Below are positions 5,512 to 36,684 of a DNA stretch of 48,932 nt, one piece after another. Position 1 is the first letter of the stretch; every line of letters begins with the position of its first letter. This DNA comes from a virus (lineage: Duplodnaviria > Heunggongvirae > Uroviricota > Caudoviricetes): the IMG/VR virus record IMGVR_UViG_640753024_000009; one strand, written 5' to 3'. Below the pieces are notes generated by a model that did no database searches, was not told the origin of the DNA, and saw only the letters and a program-made list of their open reading frames with translations. The position numbers and the translations under genes were made by a program.

Positions 5512-7017
5512 TCAGGCTGTTTCTTTAAAAAGGGAGGCCAGCGCTTCAACTGTATAGTCATTATTAACGCGGTACATTAACGTAATTGTTTGTGCTGGAG
5601 ATTTCGGACCAAAATCAACATTAATATAAAGATTACCAGCGGCCAGACTTTCTTTTGTATTCAGCTCACCGTCTAACCACGCTCGCCCTCCGTTAATCGC
5701 ACCCTGCTCCTCTAATTTGTGCAGATATGCGTTTATCGACTCGACAACGTCTGTTCCGAGATGCAGGTCTATCGGGCGATCAATAAAATCTGTCATCATT
5801 GCCCGGGCTATAGAATCTTCAATTACGTCAGCTGTCCGACGAACGCATTCAAACGACCATTGTGGATCCAGACTGCACAGATAGTTACCCCAGTGCCGGA
5901 ATCCATCGTAGCGAATAATGGTGCTGACCTGGCTGGCGTTCAGCAGGTTCGCCGTACAGTTTGTCTCGCCAATAATGAAATCATCAACCTGCTCAAGCCC
6001 TGTTATTCCATAAATATTTTGATTCGACTTACTCCACCAAAACCCTTTTTCATTATCAATTCTGGCTCGTAAACCAGCAGCAATGGCTGAATATGGTCTT
6101 GATTGCCCGCCTACGTCGCTAGTTGAATAAACACGGGGACGCAACAACTCAGCACGTCCGCCGAGTTTTTGCCGGCGATTCACAACGTCTGCAGGGGTAG
6201 CTGCGCGCGGAGAGTCTATATAACACACCCCCCGGAGTTTATTTGCGACCACCTCAAGCTGAGCGGCTATCGCATCAATTGCGCTAAAATCTGGTGCAAT
6301 AATAATACGCGGTGTGACTTCGGTTAACTGTTTCGATTTTTCCAGCTGTTTGACACCGTCGATAATATTTTGCTGTTGTTTTGTTGTGTCTTTGTCATCT
6401 TTTACTCGTACAACAACAAGCAAGGCGTTGTCCTGATTGAAAATATCGGCAATATCTTTCGGCAACGTGCCGCGCTCACCCAGTAAAGCGGCTTTTTTTG
6501 GACTCCCGGCAACAAGTACGGGGGTATTAATTGGGAACGCCTCATCACTGCCGCCACTTAAATATTGCAACGGTGAGGCAGTCACATTTCCCGCGTCCTC
6601 CCCGACATCTACTGCCGTAATTGTTAAAAATAATTGGTCCGGAGGCGGGTTTGCTATTGTGACTGCCTGCACGATTTCTGCTGGGGTGTATCCGTGCGAG
6701 CCGGATGCCGGTGCGACTGATATTGATAAACGTCGACTCCCGTCGGGCATATCACTCCACAGTGCCGTGCAGCCGTCCGGATCGGTTTCGAGAATCTCTA
6801 CGCTCCATGAATTGCCCCTCACCCCCTGTCCCGTCGCCGTGAATTTAAGGCGGTTTTTTAAAATAGCACTCCCTGTTATTAACTCGGAACTGGTTGATTG
6901 CGCGGAATCCGGTGCAGTACCAACAATCCCGATAACTGAAATATCTACCGCGCTGATCTCTTTTGTGCCGTCGTCGTATTCTAGCGTGCGTGGGCCGTGC
7001 AAAAAATTAGTGCTCAT
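5512..7017 (-). CDS. Contractile tail sheath protein
   Basis: 501-aa product followed by tube gene; canonical sheath-tube pair. Confidence 0.8.
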   Translation of the reverse strand: MSTNFLHGPRTLEYDDGTKEISAVDISVIGIVGTAPDSAQSTSSELITGSAILKNRLKFTATGQGVRGNSWSVEILETDPDGCTALWSDMPDGSRRLSISVAPASGSHGYTPAEIVQAVTIANPPPDQLFLTITAVDVGEDAGNVTASPLQYLSGGSDEAFPINTPVLVAGSPKKAALLGERGTLPKDIADIFNQDNALLVVVRVKDDKDTTKQQQNIIDGVKQLEKSKQLTEVTPRIIIAPDFSAIDAIAAQLEVVANKLRGVCYIDSPRAATPADVVNRRQKLGGRAELLRPRVYSTSDVGGQSRPYSAIAAGLRARIDNEKGFWWSKSNQNIYGITGLEQVDDFIIGETNCTANLLNASQVSTIIRYDGFRHWGNYLCSLDPQWSFECVRRTADVIEDSIARAMMTDFIDRPIDLHLGTDVVESINAYLHKLEEQGAINGGRAWLDGELNTKESLAAGNLYINVDFGPKSPAQTITLMYRVNNDYTVEALASLFKETA

Positions 7018-14111: not shown

Positions 14112-14441
14112 TCAGCCAACGCTGACTGGCGTACCAGCAAACGCTGATTTGCGTTTAGCGACGTCAGTAACCGTACCCCAGTTAATCGCCGTATAACGAA
14201 ACGATCCTGATTTGTAGTACGAGCAGTCTGCAGAACTGGAGCCTGTATTAACTGCTGTGGCTGTGAGACCAACCGCCTTACCAATTGAGCCGTCCCAGAC
14301 TTTAAACGTCCCGGCAGTAGCGTCGAGCATAATCGGTGTCAGCCGGGGTACGTTGATCCCGCCCTGAAAATGACCGACGGTCGTCACAACAAGATCGGGT
14401 CCCAGAATAAAATCATCCGGGCTATACGTTTCTGTGGTCAT
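14112..14441 (-). CDS. Head decoration protein (lambda gpD family)
   Basis: 109 aa; LTPIMLDATAGTFKVWDG and KRKSAFAGTPVS match lambda D motifs; sits between C and E as in lambda. Confidence 0.85.
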   Translation of the reverse strand: MTTETYSPDDFILGPDLVVTTVGHFQGGINVPRLTPIMLDATAGTFKVWDGSIGKAVGLTATAVNTGSSSADCSYYKSGSFRYTAINWGTVTDVAKRKSAFAGTPVSVG

Positions 14442-25251: not shown

Positions 25252-25923
25252 TTATACGCAAACATCGTCTAAATGGTTCTGATAGTGATGCAAAGTTGCA
25301 AGAAGTGCCATTTCATCAAGTGCTCTCACCGCCTCTTTCATTCCTGCCCAGTGCGGGGAGTATGTTTCGCACCAGGTGGAACGAGAAACAGACAACATTC
25401 CAGCTAGCGCAGACCCGGCCATCTCCTTAAAATCCTCGCGTTTATTTGCTGCTGCAACCGCCTGCACGGACAACCACACCAACGAAAGCAGGCGCTTAAC
25501 TACTTTTCTCTGAGTTGACGCGGGGATGTGTCCTTTATAGCGACTCCAGGCAGCCTCACAAATAGCTGTTTGGTGTTTGAATGCCAGGTTACCACCGTAG
25601 CAATAACGCAACCACGCTTGCTGACTTGCATCCAGCGAGTTCACAGAACGCCGCCAGGATGAATCAGCAAATTCAAAATCATTCATCGGCGGCGCGGGGC
25701 GACGTCTGCTAAAACTTTCCAGAGCGTAAACTGGCGTAACCAGAGCATCAACGGTCCGGTCCTCCAGTTGCACACGATGAATATGTTTGCGTGGGTATGC
25801 GTTTTTATCTGCCGGTGGGTGCTCACACAATGCTTCCAGTTGCCCCTTAGAACCACCAGACAAATCCCGCAATACAGCGCGCAGTTTTATGCGGGTATAT
25901 TCCAATAAATACTCGTTACTCAT
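25252..25923 (-). CDS. Late-gene antiterminator, Q-like
   Basis: 223-aa protein immediately upstream of the lysis cassette and downstream of YbcO-like gene; assignment by position and size. Confidence 0.5.
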   Translation of the reverse strand: MSNEYLLEYTRIKLRAVLRDLSGGSKGQLEALCEHPPADKNAYPRKHIHRVQLEDRTVDALVTPVYALESFSRRRPAPPMNDFEFADSSWRRSVNSLDASQQAWLRYCYGGNLAFKHQTAICEAAWSRYKGHIPASTQRKVVKRLLSLVWLSVQAVAAANKREDFKEMAGSALAGMLSVSRSTWCETYSPHWAGMKEAVRALDEMALLATLHHYQNHLDDVCV

Positions 25924-27217: not shown

Positions 27218-27859
27218 TTATTTATCACTCCTGTAAATTGAAATTAACCATTTTCTAATCGTCGACGCTGCAGGTGGGTCAGAGTATTTCGCCACAAAAA
27301 TACCGGATATGTATTGCACACCACGCGATAATGGCGCTGTCGGGTTTTCAGTAAAAAAACGATCAGCCAGTTCAATGGCTTCGCTTTTTAATCTGTGCTG
27401 TGGTCGTCCTCCGCCCTTAGTGCCAAGGTAACGCGCCAGTTGTTTGAAACGGTAGGCGATGATTAACGGTCGCATCATCATATTGAAAAAATCGCGGGCA
27501 TCGTTGTCAGCGCCTTGCGCTATCAACAGTGCAAAAAACAGATACGGGATTGTGTACACTTCAGGAGATATACGAACCCGTTCACAAGTTGGTGGAGCCA
27601 ACTCAATAAGTAAGTCAGCCAGCGGATTCCCCTTTTCTCCACGTTTGTAATAGCGATACAGCGGCCCGATATCAAGTTCACTCGCGTCGATTTCAGGATG
27701 CCTGGTAACGGCTGTACGTATCTCTTCTGCCAGAGCGTCAAATATTGCCCCGGTCCGCTCAAGATAGAGCCTCCGGGTCGAGCCGCGATCATCCAGAGCT
27801 CGTAACATATCTAATCGGCTAACGAAAGTTTCAGGCCAGTCCTCATAGAGGGTTTTCAT
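27218..27859 (-). CDS. Hypothetical protein (213 aa), first backbone-strand gene after the accessory island
   Basis: GAGG 6 nt upstream of ATG at 27859; preceded by an intrinsic terminator; no recognised motif. Confidence 0.5.
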   Translation of the reverse strand: MKTLYEDWPETFVSRLDMLRALDDRGSTRRLYLERTGAIFDALAEEIRTAVTRHPEIDASELDIGPLYRYYKRGEKGNPLADLLIELAPPTCERVRISPEVYTIPYLFFALLIAQGADNDARDFFNMMMRPLIIAYRFKQLARYLGTKGGGRPQHRLKSEAIELADRFFTENPTAPLSRGVQYISGIFVAKYSDPPAASTIRKWLISIYRSDK

Positions 27860-27927
27860 AATTACCTCGAATAATAAAACTGCATTATTTGCACAATTTA
27901 TTATTCGTTTTCACATCGTGAAGTCTA

Positions 27928-27954
27928 TAAAAAAGAAGACCCGCCGAAGCGGGT
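27928..27954 (-). terminator. Intrinsic terminator (minus strand)
   Basis: ACCCGC-TTCG-GCGGGT hairpin followed by CTTCTTTTTT on the minus strand. Confidence 0.5.
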
Positions 27955-28368
27955 TAGTAAATCATTTGTGCCAAATTATAAGACCACACCGTAAGCTTTT
28001 ATATGCGTCCTATGGTTATAGCTCATATTATATGCTTCAAAAATATCTATTCTTTTGTTCTAACGTCAACACCTACCCTTAAAAGATTAATTCTCTAAGA
28101 ATGAGAGAATGTTGTGTGTATTAGATAAGATATGAGCTGACACATCTATGGCGTGAAGACAAATTTAATCTGACAGTCTACTTTGTTGCCAGAGCGGATA
28201 TCGCAAGCGTTAAGTCAGATATTTGAAAACGCATCGTTATCCTGGTTGGGATACTTGCACTACTTTTAGGCGTACTGCTATCTTGCACAGTTATTCAAAG
28301 GTAATTTTTTCTTTATTAGTAGCCTACTTCCAGGGGCTTGTACAACTGACAAAACGAGGGAGATCCCC

Positions 28369-29148
28369 ATGAGCAACAAAGATTTTTCACTTTTTTATTT
28401 TGCAACCATTGATCGGTCTTACTTCCTCGACAAACACAATTTTTATGTTGCTGAAGCCAGAAAGCGTCTATTTTCGCAGTTTAGCGATTCTGATCTTGAA
28501 GCTGAAGCCAGGCAGAGAGAACAAGATTACTATGAGGCCGCCGGTAAGCGTTTTGACCCCGATTATGACGACGAAGGGGCTATCTGTGAACAGGCTCATG
28601 ATGAAGGAATTTCACATTGGATTGCTCTCAGTGATATGAAAAATACGGTTTCACTTGCTCTGACAGCAGGAATGTTTCATCAGTTCGACAAGGAACTTAG
28701 AGAGAAGTGTATCAGAGAATTCAGCCATTGGCTCGACGCTAAATCCGTAACATCGATGATCTGGGACATTAGCTTCCCAAGGCTAATTGAAATTCTAGAA
28801 TGGATTGGGATGGATATCACCAGCAAGGCTTATTACGAAAAAATCGATGCCTGTCGCCAAGTGGTTAATGTTTATAAGCACGGTGATGGCCATGCCCATC
28901 GGGTGCTTTCCGTCGCGCATCCTGAGTATTATCAGGATATCAATATTCCAAGAGGCTACAGATTTAGTCTACGTCATGAGCAACTTGAGGTTACAGAAAC
29001 ACAGTTTATAGAGTTTGCAGATGCGATTACAGCTTTCTGGAATGATATCCCAACATACTGTATGCGCTCAGCTATTCGGGAAGAACCTGAATGGATAAAA
29101 GGCGAATATAAAAAACATGAGAAGAAAGTTAAAATGCTTCAGGACTAA
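28369..29148 (+). CDS. Hypothetical protein (259 aa), accessory island cargo
   Basis: SD GAGGGA 8 nt upstream of ATG at 28369; opposite strand to phage backbone; no recognised domain. Confidence 0.55.
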   Translation: MSNKDFSLFYFATIDRSYFLDKHNFYVAEARKRLFSQFSDSDLEAEARQREQDYYEAAGKRFDPDYDDEGAICEQAHDEGISHWIALSDMKNTVSLALTAGMFHQFDKELREKCIREFSHWLDAKSVTSMIWDISFPRLIEILEWIGMDITSKAYYEKIDACRQVVNVYKHGDGHAHRVLSVAHPEYYQDINIPRGYRFSLRHEQLEVTETQFIEFADAITAFWNDIPTYCMRSAIREEPEWIKGEYKKHEKKVKMLQD

Positions 29149-29233
29149 AATTCTTGATAATAGCAAGTGTATCCTACATGTAGACATTTGCCTGCCGTGT
29201 CTTTTAGCTACCCTAGCTGCGAGAACAATTACG

Positions 29234-29339
29234 AACTTCCGCTCCTCGCTCACAGCGAACTTTCAACTCAGTTAGCTTGCCCGCTTCGTACCAAAAGCGG
29301 GCATTGCTAACATCTATCTCCATCAATCTGTGGGAACAG
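29234..29339 (+). repeat. Structured island repeat, copy 1
   Basis: Shares CTCGCTCACAGCG box (29245-29257), hairpin GCCCGCTT...AAGCGGGC (29279-29302), GCTAACA and GTGGGAACAG boxes with copies 2 and 3. Confidence 0.7.
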
Positions 29340-29626
29340 CTCGCCGTAATAGCACATTGAATCCTATGTCTAAAAGCAGATGTTCTGGTTTGCCGGGAAA
29401 TTTACAAAATGACGGCGTCTCTTGTTAGAGGTTCTCCCTGCTTCACACTGCTGATTCTTCATGGATTTTAGTATAATTAGTGAAAAAAATTTTTTTGGTT
29501 GTTATCATATACATGAGGACTTCTTCAGAAGAACTGAGAAAAATTCGGGGTTCACTTAACACAATGACAATTAAGAAGATTAACTGTCTGGTAAGTGATT
29601 ATTTTATTCATTAAAAAACAAACATC

Positions 29627-30289
29627 ATGATAATTGACTTTATAAAAAGCAAGGAAGCCTTGCTAATATTGGCAATAACTGTTCTATCTTATATGTCTGC
29701 AATTTCATTTGAATATGGCTATGCATATCATTTTGATTATCCTATGGAGTTTATAACGTTAGATTCTAAATTTTTATTCGTGGGTATGTCATATTTATTT
29801 TTTAATATAATTTGTGTTATGTTGATGTTTTTTACTCCATGGCCTGAAAGTAAAGTAAAAGCAGTTAAAGTTACTGCAGTTACAGTTTTTATCATGATTG
29901 TTTTTATTGTTCAGTCTTATAGACATAAGACTGAATATGGTGGTTTTTTCGTTTTAAGTTTATCGATAGCAACAGTTACTTATATTATATACAAAATTGT
30001 TAAAAATCATAAACGTAATCCAAGTTATTTAATTTGGTCTGCAACCCTTCCCCTTATTGCCATAATGACATTTAGTTTCTTAATTGGTTTACAACAAGCG
30101 TCATTAAAAAAAGAATTTAGTTACTTTCATGATCAATCTAAAGACTACGTGATTATTAGGTTGTATGACGGTAACCTTGTCGCTAAAGAAGTAAATATAA
30201 AAGAGCGCAAGCTAGGGAGTGAGATATTATATATACCTAGCTATAACCCAGCCCCTATAACGTTAAATAAAATTAAAATAGAACAATAG
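29627..30289 (+). CDS. Multi-pass membrane protein (220 aa), very AT-rich
   Basis: At least four hydrophobic helices; low-GC coding sequence; flanked by repeat copies 1 and 2. Confidence 0.6.
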   Translation: MIIDFIKSKEALLILAITVLSYMSAISFEYGYAYHFDYPMEFITLDSKFLFVGMSYLFFNIICVMLMFFTPWPESKVKAVKVTAVTVFIMIVFIVQSYRHKTEYGGFFVLSLSIATVTYIIYKIVKNHKRNPSYLIWSATLPLIAIMTFSFLIGLQQASLKKEFSYFHDQSKDYVIIRLYDGNLVAKEVNIKERKLGSEILYIPSYNPAPITLNKIKIEQ

Positions 30290-30432
30290 ATTCATATAGT
30301 GGCCTTATGAAAAATAGGTCACTATCGTTGATATTTCATATGAATTTTTAACGACCTTGGTAGTAAAATTATCGTAAATCCCCTACATAACAAGACCATT
30401 TACTATAGATCTGTTTTACTCTCAATAAAATC

Positions 30433-30532
30433 AACTTCCGCTCCTCGCTCACAGCGGACCTTCAGTTTTTGTCCGCTTCGTGTCAGAAGCGGAAGTAGCT
30501 AACAACAGCCTATGTTGATTCAAGGGGAACAG
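30433..30532 (+). repeat. Structured island repeat, copy 2
   Basis: AACTTCCGCTCCTCGCTCACAGCG block identical to copy 1; hairpin TCCGCTTC...GAAGCGGA (30472-30493); GCTAACA; GGGGAACAG (30524-30532). Confidence 0.7.
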
Positions 30533-30611
30533 GTCACTGGGTTAATCTAATTATGTCCCTTTAGAACCATCTTTCTTAAGTGAATATATTTTCACTTTAT
30601 TTTCTACTGCC

Positions 30612-31991
30612 TCAGTCATAAGGTTTGTTTTTGGCTTTTGACATCATGAGAAGGAAATATGAAGGGTGGCTCTTTATTTCTGAAGAATGGCTTGTAATAT
30701 TAAAGACATCTTTTAGAATCGTAAAAGCTCCTGTAGCCAACGACACTGGATTTGGTGCACCAATAAAACCTATCAATGAAGGCACACTGTTAAGAAAAAG
30801 TTCTTTTTTACTCTTCCGCTTATAGGCTTGTATTTTTTGCTCAATATCTGTCAATCCTTCATCCCACACCCGCTCGACAAAATGTTGATTTATTAGTTGT
30901 CTCTTATATGGATCACTTTCTGCTTCTATATCATACGCAGCTTCACGTAGTACAGAGCGGAAAGAATTAAAACTCGGCTCGTAGTCAGTTCTAATTTTGT
31001 AGAGTTCACTTGGAGTCAGTCCCTCTAAGAATGGAACGTCTATAGAGAGTTTAACCCTCTGAACTTCATTCTTTTGATCAAGTTTACGAAGAATCTCTCC
31101 ATGAAACGGGCAATATGCCCCCAGGGATGCTCTACATGAATGCGCTTGGTTAAGGTCAGTAATAAGGTTTTTATAATGAAAGAGAACCGTACGGTTTTTT
31201 GCTCCCTGCACCCACCGTTCATAACTTTTTTTTCCGCTATGATTTCCCATGACAAGCTCCATAGATATGGAGCCATCATCATTATCAATGGCATTTTTTA
31301 TATGTTGATACATATATCCATTTGTATATAAACTTTCACAGTCTTTAATTTCCAACATAATTTCATTAGATAAAACATTTTTGTTTAATAACCGAATTTT
31401 ATTTGTATTACCTAGACGTTCTATATTCTTTACGGATAGTCTATTTTCATAAAGACGGGCAATGTTAGGAGGGAGATATCGATATATAAAATTAGCATCA
31501 GAGTTATCGTCTAAAATTCCATTGGCCCTCTCCGAATCTTTAATAGAAGATTCGCTGCGTACAAAAACGATAAACTCACCACGGATAAGATCAAAGTTTT
31601 CTTTAGCAAACCTGATAAATCTAGCAATTTCCTTCCTGAGATGTTCAACCTTCTCTTTTCTATCGCTTACAATAATTTTTTCAAATGCATTTTCTGTTAG
31701 ACTCACTCTGTATCGTAGGCTCAATGAATACAGAACATCATCAAGAATGACTCTGTCCATTGAAAACAGTCCACTCTTATACCTTTCAATATTACGATTT
31801 CCCGCCATGTAAACATTTAGCCGAGACTCCTGTACAGAATTTGCTTGCTCGATAATCAGTGAATCTATTCTTTTATTATATTCATCTAACTCAATTAGCA
31901 ATTCATTCAATCCAATATTTTCATATTCCTGATCTAAAAGTCGATCAACCCAGAAAAGGCTTTCTGTGAGGGCATAGAGGTTGTTGTACAT
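30612..31991 (-). CDS. Hypothetical protein (459 aa), AT-rich
   Basis: AGGA 7 nt upstream of ATG at 31991; convergent with the membrane protein gene; flanked by repeat copies 2 and 3; no recognised domain. Confidence 0.6.
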   Translation of the reverse strand: MYNNLYALTESLFWVDRLLDQEYENIGLNELLIELDEYNKRIDSLIIEQANSVQESRLNVYMAGNRNIERYKSGLFSMDRVILDDVLYSLSLRYRVSLTENAFEKIIVSDRKEKVEHLRKEIARFIRFAKENFDLIRGEFIVFVRSESSIKDSERANGILDDNSDANFIYRYLPPNIARLYENRLSVKNIERLGNTNKIRLLNKNVLSNEIMLEIKDCESLYTNGYMYQHIKNAIDNDDGSISMELVMGNHSGKKSYERWVQGAKNRTVLFHYKNLITDLNQAHSCRASLGAYCPFHGEILRKLDQKNEVQRVKLSIDVPFLEGLTPSELYKIRTDYEPSFNSFRSVLREAAYDIEAESDPYKRQLINQHFVERVWDEGLTDIEQKIQAYKRKSKKELFLNSVPSLIGFIGAPNPVSLATGAFTILKDVFNITSHSSEIKSHPSYFLLMMSKAKNKPYD

Positions 31992-32150
31992 ATCAGTTCC
32001 TTTTTACCAGGCTTCAGTCAGAGTACACTATCATTTTACATTTAAATGTACTTCCAAGCATCATGCTGTTAGTGCCGGATTATAACACTTGGCACCCGTA
32101 TGTTTGGATAACAAACTGCGTATAATCCTTGTGAGTTGTGATGTCTGTTT

Positions 32151-32250
32151 CTCGCTCACAGCGGGTCTTCAGTTGTTCGTCCACTCTGTGCCAGGAGCGG
32201 ACATTGATTATTCCTCACTGTAAAAATCTTAATGCTAACTAGTGGGAACT
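32151..32250 (+). repeat. Structured island repeat, copy 3
   Basis: CTCGCTCACAGCG (32151-32163); hairpin GTCCACTC...GAGCGGAC (32179-32202); GCTAACT and GTGGGAAC (32242-32249). Confidence 0.65.
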
Positions 32251-32271
32251 ATAAGTTGTCAATTGACATGA

Positions 32272-33123
<852 letters not shown>

Positions 33124-33203
33124 CCAATATATGGCAGTAATGAATATTTCGGGGATCGTGTTTGCTGCGGTCATGGTTACCATTATTAGTGTGCTGAACT
33201 GAA

Positions 33204-34439
33204 ATGACTAAGCGAAATAAAACCCCAAAATTTAACTTGGACAAAGCTCGCAAAAAAGAGATTCGCGCAGCCTTAACCAGCGTGGGTATGACCCCTCAAC
33301 ATGATGGCTGGGCGGATTTGTTTATGTACGCTTATACAGATGGCAGCAATTTAAACGGTTTGCAATTGGCCAAAGCCTTATCAGTGCATCCAACACTGAT
33401 AAATGGTTTATCGCGCGGCATCAAATTAAAACCAGAGAAAGCGCTCTCCAAAAAACGACCATCAAAACCTACGCTGGCCGATAAACGCCGCGAGGCCAAA
33501 CAGAAGGTCAATATGGGCTGGGAAGCGCTGATTCGCACTATGCCTATGCAAAAGCCAGGCGCACGCAAAAACCCTGAAACAGAAGCCCTTTGGGAGAATG
33601 CCCGTCGCCGTGGCACGTCCCAGGCCAGCACGCCAGCATTTACGCCGACAATCATCCCGCGCAAGGTTTCCGCTCAAATCAACACCGAATTACCAGGCCT
33701 GCAATCAACGCAGATGGAAACACCGAAACGGTATGATTCTGTGAGCATGACATCAAAAGTTACGACAAAGCTGGATAATCGCGTCCTACAGGATTTTCTG
33801 GCAAAACACATTCCAGCCAGCCAGCGTCGTGATGTTGAGCTTTATATCCACAAACACCAGCATGAAGCCACCACGACCATTGAACTGGTGCAGCGGTACC
33901 TGGATGATCAGGAAGAAAAGCAAATCATCCGAGAAGCCGAGAAGCTGGCCGACGTTGTTCCGGAACTGGTAGCCGATGATCGAATCATCATGTCGCAGGA
34001 AGTAGTGGTCGTCGTGGAGGAAGAGAAACCCGCGCCCGCGCTTGGCCAACCTGTCAAACTCCACAGTACCCGAACCGCGCAGCGCATCGTTGAGCAGCGC
34101 GACACGACGGCGCATATGCAGTTTGTTGAATGGGTATGGAATAATTTTGCTGGCCGTTGCGCGGTGACTGGCTGGCAGAACGGCGAACGATTGCAAGCGG
34201 CGCACATTGAGCCAGCTACCTCAGGCAATTTTAGCGCTGATAATGGCCTGTTGTTGACTCCAACGATACACGACTTACTAGACGCAGAGCTGATGGCCGT
34301 CAACCCTGAAACAATGACCGTACATTTTGCCCCAGGTATTGAGCTCGGCGCGATGTTTGAAGGCAAAGTGATTGAGCCTAAATTATGGCCGCTGAACATG
34401 GCCGCGTTGGTTAAACGCTGGAAAGAACGGAAATTCTGA
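33204..34439 (+). CDS. HNH nuclease domain protein (411 aa)
   Basis: C-terminal CAVTGWQNGERLQAAHIEPATSGNFSADNGLLLTPTIHDLLD fits an HNH motif; basic N-terminal 300 aa unassigned; 80 bp downstream of the GIY-YIG gene on the same strand. Confidence 0.6.
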   Translation: MTKRNKTPKFNLDKARKKEIRAALTSVGMTPQHDGWADLFMYAYTDGSNLNGLQLAKALSVHPTLINGLSRGIKLKPEKALSKKRPSKPTLADKRREAKQKVNMGWEALIRTMPMQKPGARKNPETEALWENARRRGTSQASTPAFTPTIIPRKVSAQINTELPGLQSTQMETPKRYDSVSMTSKVTTKLDNRVLQDFLAKHIPASQRRDVELYIHKHQHEATTTIELVQRYLDDQEEKQIIREAEKLADVVPELVADDRIIMSQEVVVVVEEEKPAPALGQPVKLHSTRTAQRIVEQRDTTAHMQFVEWVWNNFAGRCAVTGWQNGERLQAAHIEPATSGNFSADNGLLLTPTIHDLLDAELMAVNPETMTVHFAPGIELGAMFEGKVIEPKLWPLNMAALVKRWKERKF

Positions 34440-34570
34440 TTAAATATTTTAATCACCATCGTGCTGGCTGCCATCGCCTATATGGCGTTGCCTCATCACT
34501 CGAATCCGAATGCATAATCTTATCCGAGTGGGGAAAGTGCACCACCAAAACATCGAAACAGGAATAGAAA

Positions 34571-35131
34571 ATGAACGGAATATCAAAAATCATCTTAGCA
34601 CTGACCGCTGGATTTACGCTGTCCGGATGTGTAAGCCATACCCAAAAAAATTCACAACCAGATCCGGCTGCAATCGAGGCGGCAAAACTTGCGCAGTACA
34701 CCGATTCACAGCTTTGCCAGGCAGAAGATAATATAGAGCCATTGCTCAACCTTAATCCATCATCTCATCCTGAATTTAATGAAAATTATCGCCGCGCCCA
34801 GGCTATTAAAAAGGTGATCGCCTCTCGTAATTTAAGCTGCTACCGCCTGAAAATGGAGAGGGCAGAACAGGCCACACCAGCACGCCCGTTAAGCCCACGA
34901 CAAAAACAAGCGAGGGCATCCGCTGTTTGCCAGGCTTACGCCCAGCGTACCCGATTTGCGGATCCGACAGTCACATTTCAGATGTGCGGGAAAGGATTCC
35001 AGTCTACTTCGGCAAAATGTAAGGAAGATTTGGCGAGTTTTGAACGTGAGTCTCAGAAACTTAGAGGTACGGCCAGAGCGGAATATGTTGAAATTAGCAG
35101 TGCATTTCGGGCAGGCTGTACTTTAAAATAA
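34571..35131 (+). CDS. Lipoprotein (186 aa)
   Basis: Signal peptide with lipobox LTAGFTLSGC; AGGA upstream of ATG. Confidence 0.6.
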   Translation: MNGISKIILALTAGFTLSGCVSHTQKNSQPDPAAIEAAKLAQYTDSQLCQAEDNIEPLLNLNPSSHPEFNENYRRAQAIKKVIASRNLSCYRLKMERAEQATPARPLSPRQKQARASAVCQAYAQRTRFADPTVTFQMCGKGFQSTSAKCKEDLASFERESQKLRGTARAEYVEISSAFRAGCTLK

Positions 35132-35583
35132 AAAATGAAGTAATATTAATAACGCAATTGAATTTAAAAAAATCAATGCCTACTCGGTGCCATATACAGC
35201 CATTGTTATTAACAGCAGGGAATAATTCCACACTGAAATTAAATGTCTACCTTTTACAGTAGAAATAGTTCCTCCAGGACACTATCCATTGCCGGGCACA
35301 ATCACTCGGGGTATAACGATATAAAATATGTTCATGATAGTGCAGGTTCGTATATTAAGTTCAGCAGCGAAAACATGCCCTGCAGGTTTCCGGTTTTGGG
35401 AGCGTCGTTACAGGATCCTGTGCATACCGTTCCCATCTGTTGAATTAAAGGTTTCACAGCCTTTGCCGATATCACCTTTTACCTTGCCTGTGATGCGTTC
35501 AGTGCTCAGCGTTGTTTACTGTAGCTCTCGGAACTGATTACAGACCGCGTCTTAAAAACCAATCCTTACTCTAAAGGGAATTC

Positions 35584-36507
35584 ATGAGATTAAAATACTC
35601 AGTACTCTTACTCGCCATTGCCCTTACAGGCTGTGATAACAAAAAAGATGAGATCGGTTGTTCTTCGGAAATGACCCAATCAGCTCTCATGGATTTATTA
35701 AAAAAATCTGCTTATGAAGGACTCTCTGAACAGGTCGATAAATACCCTGATGTCACTAATCAGACCAAACGAAGCACACTGGACAAGATCAAACTAGCCG
35801 TCTCTGAAATCTCCACAACATCAAGTGACACGGGCAGCACAATGAAAACTTGTGAAGGGACCGTGACGATGACTCTACCTGCGAACGAGTACGTCCAGCT
35901 TTCTGATGCTTACAGAAAGAATTTTAATCGTAATCTCGATAAGCAAATGGAAAATCTGTTTTTGGAGAACAACGCAAACGCCTTTTCAAAACGTATCACC
36001 TACACCGTGCAGGCGACCGACGATCAGAAAAACGTTTTTGTAAAAACCTCTTCTGATAATCCGATATCAGTGGGCGCCGCTTTACTGACATCGCTTTCCA
36101 TTATCAACCCGATCGTTGAGCAGCAGAAAATCCAGCAGGCTAAGGATGCCCAACAGAGTCAAATTGAAGCGGAACAACAGGTGCAACTCAGGGCACAGGA
36201 ACAGGCCAGGTATGAGGCGGAGAAGCAAAAAGAGAGGCAGGCACAACTTCAGCCGCAAAAATCTGAAAGCCTTGATCAGTCCCGAATGGCATTTGCAAAT
36301 GCTGACTCTGATTTGAATACCGTCTGGAGCAAGTTAACCCCGGCGAAGAAAAAAGAGTTGCTGCCTTCTCAGCGCCAGTGGATCAAAACTAAGGATGCTA
36401 TGTGCGGTAAAGTTTCAATGCAGGGAACAGATGCTGAAGTCAAGAAAATGGTCGACTGCCAGACGCAAATGACCCTTTCAAGAATCGCTTTCCTCAGAAA
36501 CCAATAA
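35584..36507 (+). CDS. Lipoprotein with C-terminal LprI-like (DUF1311) domain
   Basis: Lipobox LLAIALTGC; Gln/Glu-rich coiled region; C-terminal LNTVWSKL...QRQWIKTKDAMCG...QTQMTLSRIAFL resembles DUF1311. Confidence 0.6.
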   Translation: MRLKYSVLLLAIALTGCDNKKDEIGCSSEMTQSALMDLLKKSAYEGLSEQVDKYPDVTNQTKRSTLDKIKLAVSEISTTSSDTGSTMKTCEGTVTMTLPANEYVQLSDAYRKNFNRNLDKQMENLFLENNANAFSKRITYTVQATDDQKNVFVKTSSDNPISVGAALLTSLSIINPIVEQQKIQQAKDAQQSQIEAEQQVQLRAQEQARYEAEKQKERQAQLQPQKSESLDQSRMAFANADSDLNTVWSKLTPAKKKELLPSQRQWIKTKDAMCGKVSMQGTDAEVKKMVDCQTQMTLSRIAFLRNQ

Positions 36508-36521
36508 CTGAAGTTTCCTTC

Positions 36522-36555
36522 AAGCTGGCGCCTGGTGTTAACCTGGTGCCAGCTT
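36522..36555. terminator. Long hairpin between convergent genes, possible terminator
   Basis: AAGCTGGCGCC...GGTGCCAGCTT stem of about 10 bp just after the stop at 36507; no clear U-tract. Confidence 0.3.
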
Positions 36556-36684
36556 AGTCATCAAGTACATACGTTACAGTTTTACATGGGCGGTACTTTG
36601 ACAGAGTATTCGGCCTCGTGCTGGTTGTGACTAAATACCTTTTTAAGCGCAAATAGAGTATAACCGCGCCAAACATTCAACCTG

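Follow-up and report, generated by a model that had tools for sequence, protein, structure and literature searches.

What does a plus-strand gene do among the minus-strand genes of a prophage? The question is raised by IMG/VR virus record IMGVR_UViG_640753024_000009 (48,932 nucleotides, the whole of which is called the window here), a lambdoid Escherichia coli prophage whose late/nin-type and replication genes lie on the minus strand. The gene under study (28369-29148, plus strand, 259 codons, ATG start) encodes what RefSeq labels in E. coli SE11 as a hypothetical protein, WP_000066090.1. A sequence-only reading of the DNA had proposed a stand-alone exclusion or abortive-infection factor. We describe the product as an HEPN-like all-alpha protein, and place it in an undescribed family of HEPN-like proteins that lack the canonical arginine and occur in two settings, alone on mobile elements or in YeeABC operons as their fourth gene. 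We tentatively read it as a putative solo abortive-infection or defence effector, expressed in the lysogen and carried as cargo in a variable defence hotspot; it is a credible candidate for an anti-phage gene.

The gene is real and under purifying selection, with a dN/dS of 0.25 against a 94% identical copy in E. coli ST540 and of 0.15 against the Serratia aquatilis orthologue. DNA that is 100% identical over 1.5 kb occurs in E. coli SE11 and three further complete genomes.

A predicted HEPN fold with a non-canonical site

Sequence searches gave the protein no family, in keeping with the earlier statement that it has no assignable domain: no match was found in Pfam, NCBIfam, PADLOC or the sequences of solved structures (PDB). 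In PADLOC-DB v2.0.0 the window protein had no match at E<=1, and one operonic homologue had none at E<=0.01. The sole family-database match was PHROG 19541, of 'unknown function', and an alignment of 41 members yielded nothing usable in sequence-level searches.

Structure prediction was more informative. The AlphaFold2 models of the window protein and of a 37%-identical relative both had a predicted local distance difference test score of 92.5. In the structure comparison, seven of the top eight matches were HEPN proteins (with scores, 5yep_B 9.4, 1ylm_B 8.3, 7ae2_A 8.1, 1wwp_B 7.9, 8xdj_A 7.6, 1jog_A 7.3 and the Csm6 6tug_A 6.9), and Sacsin, MtlR, TT1696, AbiA, RnlA, LsoA and Csx1 appeared further down the list. 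The predicted structure contains a four-helix up-down bundle that can be superposed on solved HEPN domains, and on these models a HEPN fold for the family is well supported.

In the HEPN superfamily the catalytic motif (Rx4-6H) lies at the end of helix 3, with N, D or H usually following the R; an Ex3[KR] motif in helix 2 adjoins the site, and inserts, sometimes a helical hairpin, are found between helices 2 and 3 (PMC3710099). Conservation at the corresponding places was counted over 205 family members. Helix 154-171 of the model closes with N167-x3-H171 and is followed by a G-x-G loop, so that V166-N167-V-Y-K170-H171-G172-D-G174 (codons 28864-28890, plus strand) falls at the Rx4-6H position, with Val for Arg. 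H171 is present in 205/205 members, N167 and K170 in 204/205 each, G172 in 202/205 and G174 in 203/205. The segment CRQVVNVYKHGDGHAHR, picked out by the sequence-only reading, contains this invariant N-x2-K-H-G-x-G motif. Helix 69-118 bears H104-x2-D107-K108-x2-R111 (codons 28678-28701, plus strand), corresponding to the helix-2 Ex3[KR]. Here position 107 is acidic in 204/205 (D in 133, E in 71), K108 is kept in 189/205 and H104 in 181/205, while position 111 is R in 192/205 and K in 11 more. A helical hairpin (124-145) is inserted between these two helices in the model.

Alignment and model together show conserved residues at both positions that would form the HEPN RNase site, namely [DE]-K-x2-R in helix 2 and x-N-x3-H at the end of helix 3. 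Because the positions of the motif, helices and insert agree with the published arrangement (PMC3710099), the Arg excepted, the predicted geometry is a good match to HEPN, and the family's site is non-canonical in HEPN terms. The protein has the His at the helix-3 end, a polar residue after the R position and the acidic helix-2 Ex3[KR], and lacks the Arg of Rx4-6H and any match to a curated HEPN sequence model. It probably belongs to the HEPN superfamily; since the Arg feature fails and no curated HEPN family matches, we assign it to none of the named families.

A single-gene cassette in a variable prophage island

Backbone homology with the related prophage of strain YZMc3-1 stops at 28048 and restarts at 36644, which bounds a variable island of 8.6 kb (28049-36643) whose cargo differs between the related prophages. 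The island in the window holds the target gene and genes for a 220-aa membrane protein, a 459-aa protein, PD-T4-3, an HNH protein and an LprI-family protein; at the same place the YZMc3-1 prophage carries an ImmA/IrrE pair, a SMEK-domain protein, a methyltransferase and others. Given these two breakpoints, with PD-T4-3 between them, the target is the left-most gene of a defence-type island, at the left edge where the sequence-only reading had put it. PD-T4-3 (ORF 32272-33123, plus strand; PADLOC 6.9e-138; Pfam LEM-3_GIY-YIG; RefSeq start equivalent to 32317; ORF, open reading frame) is a GIY-YIG single-gene defence that has been described experimentally. Solo HEPN genes are expected in defence hotspots. 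The backbone genes, including Q (25252-25923), DUF1364, DUF1367, a 213-aa gene (27218-27859) and the replicative helicase, run without exception on the minus strand, opposite to the plus-strand target, just as had been claimed.

The gene moves horizontally as a single-gene cassette, because in E. coli ST540 and some 14 further complete genomes only 28187-29252 (plus strand, 1.07 kb) is present, without the remainder of the island. This segment, comprising leader, coding sequence and 3' untranslated region (UTR), is 94% identical there and has the target as its sole gene; the ST540 copy adjoins an IS1 at the edge of a decayed prophage.

A family found solo and within YeeA/YeeB/YeeC operons

A word-indexed search returned 86 homologues, nearly all of 240-270 aa, none with a Pfam domain and all named 'hypothetical' at source. 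A profile search of 1.84 billion cluster representatives gave 1,405 matches at E<=0.001 (representatives of clusters at 50% identity), 224 of them at E<=1e-30. The family ranges over the alpha-, beta- and gamma-proteobacteria and has no name in Pfam, NCBIfam or PADLOC. The gene is carried by 131 PLSDB plasmids, mostly large ones of Citrobacter and Klebsiella. The GC content of the family gene is below that of its 20-kb surroundings in 86 of 90 loci, by a mean of 5.4 points. The target gene itself was not found in 50,697 deposited phage genomes by megablast and tblastn, and a literature search on the RefSeq accession WP_000066090.1 found no paper.

Every closer relative is a solo gene; these relatives have 42-87% identity and form 14 dereplicated groups, the window's own among them. 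The Pantoea homologue sits in the leading region of a plasmid, between psiB/psiA and ardA/antirestriction genes, in the opposite direction; a P2-type prophage carries its copy between the gpA/ogr genes and the portal gene, with PycTM and DUF5677 genes as neighbours; a Serratia prophage carries one solo homologue, and on a Cronobacter plasmid the homologue adjoins HEPN_Toprim, AAA_13 and RES genes. Neighbours at ten further loci include Gabija (GajA/GajB), a C5-methylase/EcoRII pair and AbiEii, together with five integrases, KfrA/Rep3 plasmid genes and phage tail genes. When all ORFs within 4 kb of the homologues were clustered, no neighbour recurred among the solo loci; no MNT antitoxin gene stood beside them, and the neighbours in the window are unrelated. 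A Mesorhizobium locus (L021, 1-6257) has a solo homologue beside genes for a divergent MmeI-like type IIG protein, a UvrD-type helicase and a 701-aa protein, which may be another partner arrangement. In L021, and also in L023, a conserved 177-aa ORF is found; in L021 it lies 88 nt upstream of the homologue on the same strand.

More distant relatives live differently. In 25 of the 61 dereplicated groups, at identities to the query from 32-34% up to 41%, the homologue is part of a fixed four-gene array: a ~930-aa MmeI-family protein (Pfam MmeI_N, MmeI_hel, MmeI_Mtase, MmeI_TRD and MmeI_C; PADLOC type IIG 4e-286), the homologue, a ~690-aa DEAD/ResIII helicase and a ~420-aa T5orf172/MUG113 protein. 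The stop of the MmeI-like gene overlaps or abuts the start of the homologue in 38 of 45 operon loci, and the helicase start overlaps the homologue stop in 21. This array is the YeeA(DnmA)/YeeB/YeeC cluster plus the homologue. That cluster comprises an MmeI-like methyltransferase without PD-ExK, an SF2 helicase and a T5orf172/GIY-YIG protein (PMC2731913; PMC9973331), and it was noted as a branch of the MmeI family that is associated with a helicase and a GIY-YIG protein (Morgan 2009, PMC2731913). The cluster has been described with three genes, and a fourth is absent from the description except for a remark on a neighbouring 'uncharacterized protein family' (PMC9973331). The window gene has no such cluster, and neither it nor any relative at >=42% identity lies between yeeA-like and yeeB-like genes. 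The earlier description of the gene as stand-alone is therefore apt for the cassette, which is alone in ST540, and for the closer relatives with their lack of a recurrent neighbour; it does not extend to the distant, operonic relatives.

Proteins that are 84% identical are found both inside the operon (Diaphorobacter, Kerstersia) and outside it, in an integrase-bearing island of Accumulibacter (L009, L012 and L064 compared with L060 and L061), which suggests recent uncoupling of the homologue from the operon. The Accumulibacter copies are flanked by unrelated genes of 319 aa and 352-365 aa.

In some operons the gap between homologue and helicase is an insertion slot for further accessory genes (L047 10765-11589; L050 10780-11844; L067, L075 and L091 10780-11790; L082 10762-11046; L070 10797-13083). 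One slot gene has an Abi_2-type motif, RWRNRIAHH; others, judged by eye from their sequences with no family search, look RhuM-like, YhcG/PDDEXK-like or BrnT-like, and the slot further holds a 558-aa protein and a 173-aa protein whose NWWKH motif recalls the family's NVYKH. Genes of the Abi_2, RhuM, YhcG and BrnT kinds accompany HEPN nucleases in restriction-modification (R-M) operons (PMC3710099). Alignment of the family profile by hhalign with the Abi_2-motif protein and the 173-aa NWWKH protein gave probabilities below 1%, single sequences making this a weak test.

Comparison with known HEPN systems

The closest structural matches of the target are HepT/DUF86 HEPN toxins of MNT-HEPN pairs (SO_3166, 5yep_B; 7ae2_A; 8xdj_A; 1wwp; 1jog). 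The target differs from these in having only 6-12% sequence identity and no profile match to them, no adjacent MNT antitoxin gene and Val in place of Arg, and it is about twice their size, with two extra N-terminal helices, the helical hairpin insert and a C-terminal helix. Abi_2/AbiD/AbiF, AbiV, AbiJ and ApeA are, like the family, single-gene HEPN proteins on mobile elements or inside R-M operons (PMC3710099), and the slot adjoining the homologue in some YeeABC operons is occupied by the protein with the Abi_2-type motif; the target, in contrast, has no Pfam match to these families and its motif lacks the Arg. The operonic relatives, as HEPN-type proteins within a restriction-like operon, recall PrrC and RloC, a likeness that suggests a back-up or guard role. 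The target is unlike those nucleases in being a 259-aa, all-alpha protein with no fused ABC-ATPase domain; the window copy is not beside R-M genes, and the partners of its relatives are MmeI-like, YeeB and YeeC proteins rather than type I systems. Parep1/8 and c2405 share with the family the retention of the His and loss of the Arg, and other conserved basic residues have been proposed as substitutes (PMC3710099); in sequence, domain architecture and taxonomy they are unrelated to it, being archaeal or fused to AbiTii.

Possible functions

The account that we favour, while holding it tentatively, is that of a lysogen-expressed solo effector of abortive infection or defence. The protein would be a latent RNase that needs no metal, or at the least would bind RNA as an effector, and would probably act as a dimer. 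It would be transcribed in the lysogen from the gene's own weak promoter; the orientation against the backbone and the dedicated Shine-Dalgarno sequence fit such expression. An infecting phage would switch the protein on, and the activated protein would cut host or phage RNA, so that infection is aborted or excluded. Such an action would have its analogues in the solo HEPN Abi proteins and in PrrC/RloC, the nucleases linked to R-M systems. With Val standing in for the canonical Arg across the family, H171 and the other invariant basic residues (K170, K108, R111 and H104) would have to carry the catalysis. The earlier proposal of a single-gene exclusion or abortive-infection factor is supported in part: it gains from the context (the PD-T4-3 hotspot, the P2-type hotspot, and plasmids and islands with Gabija, EcoRII, AbiEii and HEPN-Toprim) and loses from the absence of the canonical Rx4-6H Arg and the many relatives in the restriction-like YeeA/YeeB/YeeC operon.

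Several observations weigh against the effector. The canonical Arg position (166) is Val in 196/205 members and A, I or T in the rest, never Arg; since the Arg of Rx4-6H is required for activity in PrrC and in the KEN domain (PMC3710099), the protein may, to judge from its sequence, be non-catalytic. In the effector's favour, HEPN families that keep the His without the Arg are documented, Parep1/8 and c2405 among them (PMC3710099). The HEPN-like fold that the sequence-only reading had suggested looking for emerged in the predicted structure and in no profile search: among the matches of 41 family members no HEPN Pfam model appeared even at E<=10, the curated models without a match including HEPN, HepT-like, Abi_2, AbiV, AbiJ, AbiU2, Apea, RiboL-PSP, MAE_28990, pEK499_p136 and others, and Foldseek against the PDB gave no significant match (best E 0.83). 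No antitoxin or other partner that could keep a toxic RNase silent is conserved beside the solo genes. The promoter candidate of the gene is only a weak match to consensus. Finally, the Bacillus subtilis YeeA/B/C cluster gave no phage protection, but the cluster has been reported as protective in Vibrio crassostreae (PMC9973331).

The missing Arg also lies behind the main alternative, which we consider unlikely, and in which the family serves YeeABC-type complexes as a HEPN-like adaptor or regulator without catalytic activity. In the operon it would be a structural or regulatory subunit that, for example, couples the MmeI-like methyltransferase/specificity protein to the helicase-nuclease, or binds RNA or a nucleotide, and the solo copies would be decoys or modulators, working in anti-defence or regulation and not in defence. 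Binding or regulatory functions are documented for HEPN domains that lack the full motif, MtlR and the NTase-associated HEPN among them (PMC3710099), and the tight translational coupling on both sides of the operonic homologue, the 84%-identical proteins in and out of the operon and the Pantoea homologue between psiB/psiA and ardA/antirestriction genes would all suit such a role. That plasmid homologue, however, points against the ardA/psiB transcription, and the prophage copy lies among defence-type cargo rather than early anti-defence genes. The near-perfect invariance of the His, Asn, Lys and [DE]Kx2R over 205 diverse members fits an active site better than an interface, because an interface should differ between solo and operonic forms. 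A joint reading, for which we see only a slim chance, makes the family an unrecognised fourth component of YeeA(DnmA)/YeeB/YeeC, taken up again and again by mobile elements as a solo gene and acting as a guard RNase or a decoy. As a guard, an Arg-less HEPN RNase would be silenced by the restriction complex and fire when a phage disables restriction, with a host or phage factor doing the silencing of the solo form; as a decoy, the solo copies of phages and plasmids would poison YeeABC in new hosts, an anti-defence made from a defence subunit.

The remaining alternatives are less likely. An addiction-type toxin, which would stabilise mobile elements by harming cells that lose or silence them and have no direct anti-phage role, seems improbable to us: the family does occur on plasmids (the 131 PLSDB records), prophages and integrative islands, and its closest structural matches are the HEPN toxins of toxin-antitoxin pairs, but there is no conserved antitoxin-like neighbour, in particular no MNT gene, conservation is lacking for the 49-aa ORF that overlaps the start codon, and post-segregational killing is impossible for a single stable toxin without an antidote. 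Another helical-bundle enzyme, such as a DinB-like metal-dependent one using H23, H104 and H171, would reduce the HEPN likeness to a general similarity of four-helix bundles. Three well-conserved His on three different helices and the lack of any significant Foldseek match speak for it. Against it, substitutions occur at H23 in 39 and at H104 in 24 of 205 members, while N167, K170 and H171 hardly vary at all, and the motif geometry matches HEPN. We rank this metal enzyme below HEPN and think it very improbable.

If the solo effector does confer phage resistance, a widespread single-gene system (~1,400 clusters at 50% identity) would be added to the catalogue of defences, and a HEPN site would prove able to work without the canonical arginine. 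The link to YeeA/YeeB/YeeC offers a testable handle on a restriction-like system of unexplained mechanism and, if true, would add to PrrC/RloC a second case in which an RNase is coupled to a restriction complex. Should no phenotype appear, the target stays an ordinary hypothetical prophage moron. With its large family, deviant site and link to an unexplained restriction-like system, the gene is a reasonable target for experiments.

Signals around the gene

The Shine-Dalgarno sequence noted earlier, GAGGGAG (28356-28362, plus strand), lies 6 nt 5' of the ATG and is kept in ST540 and in the S. aquatilis orthologue. The claimed minus-strand terminator corresponds to a terminator-like GC-rich hairpin with a T-run (27939-27954, minus strand, the strand of the backbone), ~415 nt upstream of the ATG, for which the terminator scan gives a 6-bp stem with 5 GC pairs, a loop of 4 and the tail CTTCTTTTTT. 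Of the AT-rich putative promoter region, the base composition is evident, as GC is 37% over 28000-28499 (leader and start region) against ~50% in the flanking phage backbone genes; no sigma-70 site upstream of the gene reached the scan threshold. A candidate below it, TTGCAC-18 nt-TATCTT (28255-28284, plus strand), may serve as the promoter and is loosely conserved in S. aquatilis. Downstream, a weak AGACA/TGTCT hairpin followed by TTTT (29182-29206, plus strand), which the terminator scan did not pick up, is a possible terminator within the 3' UTR, about 100 nt of which are conserved across all three orthologous cassettes. The product is acidic, as had been said, with an isoelectric point of 5.33, a net charge of -13 and 11 His.

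A 49-aa ORF (28223-28372) overlapping the start codon of the gene (ATGA) was considered as a possible antitoxin or leader peptide and discarded for lack of conservation of the region in S. aquatilis. Rfam profiles run over 27700-29700 gave two sub-threshold matches only, at chance level.

Other features of the island

The left end of the cassette is abutted by a non-coding segment of 154 bp (28039-28192, unstranded) that is 80-93% conserved in ~400 E. coli genomes (409 records at 80-90%), is annotated there as 'none' and has no match in Rfam. Several hundred E. coli prophages have the segment between other cargo modules; its counterpart in the related prophage L026 (9005-9157, 92.9%) lies inside the island between two such modules and not at the island edge.

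The 220-aa protein (29627-30289, plus strand) is a multi-pass membrane protein encoded within a stretch of 28% GC, and the 459-aa cargo protein (30612-31991, minus strand) has no family match. Genes similar to the latter in size and orientation (450 aa) are found at the equivalent position of L026 and beside a truncated target copy in L027. On the 3' side of PD-T4-3 the SE11 annotation has an HNH-motif protein (33204-34439), a 186-aa hypothetical protein (34571-35131) and an LprI-family protein (35584-36507).

The truncated copy in L027 (6001-6349, protein P0086) is decayed, with an IS630 transposase fragment fused to the last ~60 codons of the target; it is called as a 147-aa ORF without the N-x3-H motif. 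Remnants of the gene may be commoner than intact copies, because the P0086 form is found on 562 contigs, mostly of E. coli, and the intact gene in ~15 of 5,426 complete E. coli genomes.

A repeat of ~85 nt recurs on the plus strand at the junctions of the cargo modules: after the target cassette (29234-29320), after the membrane-protein gene (30433-30515) and before PD-T4-3 (32140-32220). Each copy has the core CTCGCTCACAGCG, which in the first is followed by the hairpin GCCCGCTT...AAGCGGGC; the general form of the hairpin after the core is G(T/C)CCGCTT...AAGCGG(A/G)C. The window holds three exact cores against 0.09 expected, and homology to the ST540 cassette stops inside the first copy. When the repeat was compared with integron attC sites, the attC arrangement of core sites was not seen. 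The repeat could be a site of recombination or module exchange. It is also present in L026 (~14232-14305) and L027 (~6275-6349), and a similar sequence, nowhere annotated, is found in 546 of 5,426 E. coli genomes at one to three copies each; in both of the loci inspected it lies in integrative islands.

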